Source: Escherichia coli
Lineage (GTDB): Bacteria > Pseudomonadota > Gammaproteobacteria > Enterobacterales > Enterobacteriaceae
DNA length: 64,000 nucleotides
Reading direction: 5' to 3' (one strand)
Assembly: GCF_024502345.1 (NCBI RefSeq)
Contig: NZ_JALDNN010000001.1
Positions 17,043 to 18,191 of the stretch are shown here, piece after piece. The notes beneath the pieces were generated by a model. That model saw nothing but the letters and a program-made list of their open reading frames with translations, was not told where the DNA came from and made no database searches. Position 1 is the stretch's first letter. The number at the start of each line of letters is the position of its first letter. The position numbers were made by a program, and so were the translations under genes.

Positions 17043-18191
17043 TTACTTAGCGGTTTTACGGTACTGCTCAATTAACTCGATAAAGTGGTCGAACAACGGC
17101 GCGGCGTCGTGTGGACCAGGGCTGGCTTCAGGGTGCCCCTGGAAGCTGAACGCCGGTTTATCGGTGCGATGAATGCCCTGTAACGTACCGTCGAACAGGG
17201 ATTTATGCGTGACACGCAGGTTTGCTGGTAATGTTGCTTCGTCCACCGCAAAACCGTGGTTCTGGGCGGTGATCATCACCACGTTTTTCTCAACATCTTT
17301 AACCGGATGGTTGCCGCCGTGGTGACCAAATTTCATTTTGACAGTCTTCGCACCGCTCGCCAGCGCCAGCAGCTGATGACCGAGGCAGATGCCGAAGACC
17401 GGAATATCGGTTTCGAGGAATTTCTGGATGGCGGTAATGGCGTAATCGCACGGGGCCGGGTCGCCAGGACCGTTGGAGAGGAAGATGCCGTCTGGATTCA
17501 TTTTCAGCACATCTTCCGCAGAAGTTTGCGCCGGAACGATGGTCAGGCGACAGCCTCTGTCCACCAACATGCGCAGGATGTTGCGCTTGGCACCAAAATC
17601 ATAAGCCACGACGTGGAACGGCAGCTCGTCTTCTTTTTTCGCTTCTGGCAGGCCGCCGGTCAACGTCCAGCTCCCTTGTGTCCAGCTATAGGCTTCTGCG
17701 GTGGTCACTTCTTTTGCCAGATCCATGCCATTCAGACCTGGGAACGCGCGGGCTTTTTCTAACGCCAACGCCGCATCCGGGTTATCGCCTGCGATAATGC
17801 AGCCATTCTGTGCGCCTTTCTCGCGCAGTAAACGCGTCAGCTTACGGGTATCGATATCGGCAATCGCCACGATGTTATGGCGCTTCAGGTAAGAAGAGAG
17901 GTCTTCGGTATTACGGAAGTTGCTGGCAATCAGCGGCAGATCGCGAATCACCAGACCTTGTGCATGTACCTGAGAAGATTCTTCATCGGCGTCATTAGTG
18001 CCGACATTGCCAATATGGGGATAAGTAAGAGTAACGATTTGACGAGAATAGGAAGGATCAGTGAGGATTTCTTGATAACCGGTCATTGAAGTATTGAAAA
18101 CGACTTCCCCAACCGCCGAACCTGTTGCCCCTATGGCCCGACCGTGAAACTGGGTTCCGTCTTCCAGAACCAATAGCGCTGACTTAATCAA
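17043..18191 (-). CDS. carA: Carbamoyl-phosphate synthase small (glutamine amidotransferase) subunit (382 aa)
   Basis: TTG codon at 18189..18191 gives [13 protein letters not shown]; contains the GATase active-site region GICLGHQ. Confidence 0.93.

Follow-up and report, generated by a model that had tools for sequence, protein, structure and literature searches.

At which codon does translation of carA, caiE and slt begin? In each of these genes the longest open reading frame reaches upstream of the codon that gives the expected N-terminus, and that codon is not an ATG. The window analysed here is a stretch of 64,000 nt of the Escherichia coli chromosome with the gene order kefF-fix-cai-carAB-dapB ... 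thr ... arcA-cre-slt-ettA. A sequence-only reading of it had placed the starts at a TTG in carA and at GTG codons in caiE and slt, and had warned that automatic ORF calling yields wrong N-termini at such places.

The three candidate starts and their annotation

The carA gene lies on the minus strand and reads TTG at 18191..18189 (CAA on the plus strand), followed by ATT AAG TCA GCG CTA TTG GTT CTG GAA GAC GGA ACC. The longest carA ORF spans 17043..18218 on the minus strand (391 aa) and begins, as had been read, at an upstream GTG (18218..18216), which lies nine codons 5' of the TTG. The caiE GTG occupies 12439..12441 on the plus strand and gives a protein starting with MSYYAFEGL...; the longest ORF begins seven codons 5' of it, at the GTG at 12418, and overlaps the caiD stop codon (12431..12433). 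The slt GTG (62067..62065, minus strand) gives MEKAKQVTWRLL, and the longest ORF begins at a TTG at 62097, with an in-frame ATG at 62094 directly after it. Both GTG codons were thus found where they had been placed, and their N-termini agree with those of the orthologues; the minus strand of carA and slt and the ATG inside the longer slt ORF had not been mentioned. The features, as assigned in the reading that we prefer, are the following.

18189..18191, minus strand: carA UUG initiation codon (sequence, K-12 and PGAP starts, 79/79 related species, PDB chains, PMC6245113)
18197..18201, minus strand: carA Shine-Dalgarno sequence GGAGG, 5 nt 5' of the TTG (anti-Shine-Dalgarno pairing, conservation)
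17043..18191, minus strand: carA coding sequence, carbamoyl-phosphate synthetase small subunit, 382 aa
18216..18218, minus strand: in-frame GTG at the head of the 391-aa carA ORF, no start of translation (no Shine-Dalgarno sequence; comparative evidence)
18239..18291, minus strand: P1-derived carA leader segment (Rfam ES003 sRNA match)
12439..12441, plus strand: caiE GUG initiation codon (K-12 and PGAP starts, alignment with orthologue ATG)
12423..12427, plus strand: weak Shine-Dalgarno-like AAGGA at the 3' end of the caiD reading frame, 11 nt 5' of the caiE GTG
12439..13029, plus strand: caiE coding sequence, 196 aa
62065..62067, minus strand: slt GUG initiation codon (K-12 and PGAP starts, GTG in three other genera)
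62075..62079, minus strand: slt Shine-Dalgarno sequence GAGGA, 7 nt 5' of the GTG
61987..62067, minus strand: slt signal peptide, 27 codons, cleaved from the mature enzyme (PDB Slt70 chains)
60130..62067, minus strand: slt coding sequence, 645-aa precursor

The presence of such codons is in itself not statistically remarkable, and which codon is used must therefore be decided by annotation, Shine-Dalgarno (SD) sequences and comparative evidence. On these grounds the three sites are very probably ordinary SD-led initiation sites with near-cognate start codons, UUG for carA and GUG for caiE and slt, and we infer that CarA, CaiE and Slt carry the corresponding N-termini in the cell. The initiator tRNA would read the UUG and the two GUGs as fMet, and the in-frame start codons further upstream would belong to non-coding sequence that by chance lacks a stop. 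Because such a stretch stays open by chance, the longest-ORF rule overshoots; applied here, it would make CarA longer by 9, CaiE by 7 and Slt by 10 spurious residues, which matters for annotation hygiene only.

The proposed starts coincide with those of K-12 MG1655 (NC_000913.3; carA 29651, caiE 35371 and slt 4630733), and at all three the window and K-12 do not differ in the 60 nt 5' of the start or in the first 39 nt of the gene. In other E. coli genomes PGAP places the starts of carA, caiE and slt at the same bases. The window, which stems from an E. coli strain other than MG1655, is 99.8% identical to it over 421 bp in the carA start region; of 5,426 complete E. coli genomes, 5,425 have this region with an identity of at least 95%. 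The carA gene of K-12 (b0032), with its UUG in the carAB P1/P2 control region, has the same TTG, the same GGAGG and the same protein N-terminus, and shows no relevant difference from the gene in the window; TTG is also named as the carA start in a 2018 review (PMC6245113). For caiE (b0035) and slt (b4392) of K-12 the current RefSeq record gives GUG starts, in contexts that are the same as in the window, and the accession versions NP_414577.2 (caiE) and NP_418809.4 (slt) show that these entries were revised. The three non-ATG starts are therefore correctly read, have better SD sequences than the longer alternatives and comparative support besides, and are an ordinary annotation detail that is already known.

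The warning about ORF calling is borne out for naive calling. Longer forms have indeed been deposited, though they are rare: in public databases 40 contigs carry the 391-aa CarA and at least 1000 the 382-aa one, the 203-aa CaiE is found on a single contig, as against 490 for the 196-aa form, and a 654-aa Slt was deposited from Shigella sonnei Ss046. Current pipelines, however, call all three starts correctly. Direct N-terminal proteomic or initiation-profiling data were sought in the supplements of PMC11005335, PMC4909307 and PMC5576327, none of which has an entry for the three genes.

The existence of such database entries is one of the points in favour of longer forms that are real or made in addition, namely CarA from the GTG at 18218, CaiE from the GTG at 12418 and Slt from the ATG at 62094 or the TTG at 62097. 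The frames are open upstream in all three genes, and slt even offers a true ATG. We nevertheless consider this very improbable: curated and PGAP annotation alike reject the longer forms, the upstream codons have no usable SD sequence, and in related genera they are missing, frame-shifted or cut off by stops, as set out below for each gene. Some low-level extra initiation upstream of the carA, caiE and slt starts may occur. Conservation and the predicted SD pairing, compared for each candidate start, favour the TTG of carA and the GTGs of caiE and slt.

Initiation and control region of carA

The strong GGAGG, 5 nt 5' of the UUG, would position the 30S subunit on the carA messenger. The predicted pairing of this site with the 3' end of 16S rRNA amounts to -9.8 kcal/mol, a value reached by less than 1% of random positions in the window, whereas for the upstream GTG at 18218 it is +0.4 kcal/mol, which means that there is no SD sequence. 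CarA matches PDB chain 1cs0_B (E = 2.5e-261), with residues 10-391 of the long ORF aligned to residues 1-382 of the chain. The small chains of E. coli carbamoyl-phosphate synthetase in the PDB begin with MIKSALL, that is with residue 10 of the long ORF, although such chains are sequences given by the depositors and not proof of a start.

A genome scan yielded 80 carA loci (L005-L084) from distinct species of the Enterobacterales and Vibrionales, with protein identities of 82-96%; the start region is covered in 79 of these. Without exception the aligned codon is TTG in these 79, and GGAGG precedes it by 5 nt. In 21 of them no in-frame ATG, GTG or TTG occurs before the first stop 5' of this TTG, 1-nt indels or stops 3-8 codons 5' of the TTG are seen in several loci, and in many species the upstream GTG is absent, frame-shifted or stopped off. 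Among the 63 distinct sequences the four G residues of GGAGG (-10..-6) are invariant, the A is conserved at 0.98 and the TTG (+1..+3) is essentially invariant; conservation is 97-98% at positions -3 (G) and -2 (T), and variation is seen in Leu codons close by and in third positions. Quantified over the same 63 sequences, variability of third positions sets in with a 3-nt period immediately 3' of the TTG; 5' of it there is no such period, and this lack of codon periodicity speaks against a longer CarA.

The GTG at 18218 is well conserved within the Enterobacteriaceae, many of which have kept it, and this would favour a longer CarA. The control region of the operon offers another reason for the conservation. 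The Rfam family ES003 sRNA matches the coding strand at 18291..18239 (87.4 bits, gathering score 37), and a promoter-like TTGACT, separated by a 17-nt spacer from CAGAAT, ends at 18298; the P1 transcript would start near 18291. As P2 lies 67 nt downstream of P1 (PMC6245113), the P2 start would fall near 18224. In a consensus scan the best match to an ARG box in the window was found at 18223..18240 (box 1, one mismatch), and the same scan did not find box 2 within three mismatches. The GTG at 18218, immediately 3' of this match, would thus be situated in the ArgR-operator/P2 region, some 6 nt from the putative 5' end of the P2 transcript, a position that argues against its use as a start. The upstream DNA can be conserved in the Enterobacteriaceae without being coding because it overlaps the ArgR operator and the P2 promoter. 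The ES003 match itself corresponds to the first 53 nt of the P1 transcript, between P1 and P2, and ES003 is probably a short leader fragment derived from P1 rather than an independent gene.

Another candidate is the AUU at 18188..18186, the codon that follows the UUG. The original carA sequence paper, Piette et al. 1984, reportedly left UUG and AUU as alternatives. With AUU as the start, GGAGG would sit 8 nt 5' of it, which is a workable spacing, and AUU is a proven though rare start in E. coli (infC and pcnB), but it initiates at only 1-2% of the level of AUG (bioRxiv 10.1101/063800), and the review and the annotation cited above both give TTG. Since codon 2 varies across species (Ile, Asn, Ser, Lys or Thr) while the TTG is invariant (79/79), the AUU is to be discarded, and we hold it to be more improbable still than the longer forms. 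That translation starts further downstream, such as at the TTG at codon 7 of carA or the GTG at codon 12 of caiE, has a negligible probability: in-frame TTG and GTG codons do exist there and GAGGGG precedes codon 12 of caiE, but from genus to genus residues 2-11 are kept at the protein level while their codons change synonymously (IKSA[LI]L in CarA, a stretch opening with S in CaiE), and the codon-7 TTG of carA lacks an SD sequence (-0.9 kcal/mol).

Starts of caiE and slt

The preferred start of caiE, the GTG at 12439, has a predicted pairing of -5.7 kcal/mol, with a bulge, compared to -3.0 kcal/mol for the GTG at 12418. Its SD sequence is weak, as the AAGGA core is 11 nt away from the GTG and this is marginal in view of the usual spacing of about 4-9 nt. 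The distance from the caiD stop to the GTG is 5 nt, on account of which caiE is probably translationally coupled to caiD. In Plesiomonas, as in E. coli, the caiD stop is followed by a short spacer and the caiE start, and four genera share the order caiD-caiE-caiF. CaiE is a hexapeptide-repeat protein of the carnitine operon, and its homologues, which come from many genera, all begin with M-[ST]-x-Y-[AS]-F-E-G-L/V and align with the long ORF from residue 8 to residue 203 only; they carry Pfam domain PF00132 (hexapeptide repeat; precomputed assignment). In Citrobacter, Proteus, Plesiomonas and Aeromonas an ATG takes the position of the GTG, and in-frame stops are found two codons (Plesiomonas) and five codons (Citrobacter) 5' of the start. 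For caiE and for slt, conservation of the coding type sets in at the start codon, a qualitative comparison of four genera for each gene.

For slt the predicted pairing is -5.8 kcal/mol at the GTG, as against -1.7 kcal/mol for the upstream TTG and ATG. Most Slt homologues begin with M-[EDQG]-K-A-K. Salmonella, Klebsiella and Pluralibacter have a GTG at the same position, behind a purine-rich SD sequence, and in Serratia the start is an ATG. The peptides that would be encoded upstream are unrelated and differ in length (MMYLHLEDAL, MMLHWITIEEVL and MHRKEEEL), and in Pluralibacter there is no in-frame upstream start at all. In E. coli S1-CAM-01-A (locus L215) an insertion of ISKpn26, of the IS5 family, is found 16 nt 5' of the slt GTG, equivalent to about 62083 in the window; it falls inside the would-be extension and replaces it, sparing the SD sequence and the start, and the annotation gives slt as intact.

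The GUG of slt would open a 27-residue Sec signal peptide, and in a longer Slt the extension MMYLHLEDAL would presumably set acidic residues in front of that signal peptide, which also argues against it. The PDB chains of Slt70, the soluble lytic transglycosylase (1qsa, 1qte and 1sly), begin with DSLDEQ, at residue 38 of the long ORF; counted from the GTG, its Asp is residue 28 (Asp28). Because the signal peptide is cleaved off and the mature protein runs from Asp28, the mature N-terminus cannot decide between the slt starts. Within the signal peptide the window reads LLATGV. In K-12 we take this to be LLAAGV, with Ala where the window has Thr and Ala also in the homologues, so presumably a harmless polymorphism.

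Two further observations concern the DNA around the slt start. The best match of the region 61900..62200 among complete E. coli genomes is 99.3%, with none at 100%; the carA and caiE start regions do have matches of 100%. Just 5' of the slt SD sequence, at 62098..62115 on the minus strand, a block GCGGCA(T/C)GA(C/T)GCTGC is conserved in E. coli, Salmonella, Klebsiella and Pluralibacter; a function as promoter or regulatory element is possible.

Non-ATG starts in the region and the retention of UUG in carA

Gene starts in E. coli are about 83% AUG, 14% GUG and 3% UUG (bioRxiv 10.1101/063800). In the annotation of the same region in a sister strain, the starts of the 52 intact genes comprise 45 ATG, five GTG (caiE, nhaA, yaaX, slt and ettA) and two TTG (carA and rpsT), so that 7 of the 52 are non-ATG. 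A longer ORF is possible upstream in 15 of the 52 genes, for example in caiD (+36 codons), dnaJ (+10) and thrA (+14). Neither in their start codons nor in their upstream frames are carA, caiE and slt special among the genes of the region.

The non-ATG starts that the sequence-only reading had left out are the TTG of rpsT (26764, plus strand) and the GTGs of nhaA (33660, minus strand), yaaX (45915, minus strand) and ettA (62278, plus strand). In dnaJ a GTG at 37011 heads the longer frame, versus the annotated ATG at 36981. The longest caiD ORF begins at an ATG at 11540 (297 aa, plus strand); the annotated ATG at 11648 (261 aa) comes after GGAGAAAAGGA, and a length of 261 aa is likewise found for the caiD orthologues of four genera. 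The window further contains an IS186-type copy at about 34422..35758 (transposase ORF 34470..35588), which adjoins hokC/sokC (Rfam sok, 34096..34248); the closely related strain WCHEC020031, 99% identical elsewhere, lacks it.

Across two bacterial orders carA has kept its weak UUG, more strictly than general trends would lead one to expect, which is a minor evolutionary curiosity. In prokaryotes selection generally favours AUG, and stronger SD sequences compensate for weak start codons (Belinky et al. 2017); retention of UUG against this trend would imply a function for the non-AUG start. We regard it as possible, but on balance doubtful, that selection rather than accident holds the carA start as UUG. 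[quoted passage not shown] Like carA, rpsT (S20; UUG, in the same window) and infC (AUU) combine a sub-optimal start with a conserved and well-expressed gene. The weak start codon of rpsT and infC is known to serve autoregulation; the UUG of carA is not known to have such a role.

Outside the two orders, the carA start of Acinetobacter baumannii is TTG as well according to its annotation (PMC12525168). PMC8632094, considered as a source on the carA UUG, was set aside, as it describes a Polynucleobacter carA RNA motif and its remark on UUG concerns another motif. A metagenome scan with the conserved carA motif gave 120 loci, in which the candidate with the best SD sequence was taken as the start. 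By this heuristic calling, 13 of the 16 carA genes with at least 58% identity to E. coli (beta/gamma-proteobacterial type) have a non-ATG start (10 GTG and 3 TTG), and 25 of the 83 more distant ones. These counts are only suggestive of frequent non-AUG starts in carA genes of the proteobacterial type. In one metagenome carA of that type (L207; 64% identity to E. coli) the 26-45 codons 5' of the FNT motif include no ATG, GTG or TTG, and the gene may have a non-canonical start or be mis-assembled.
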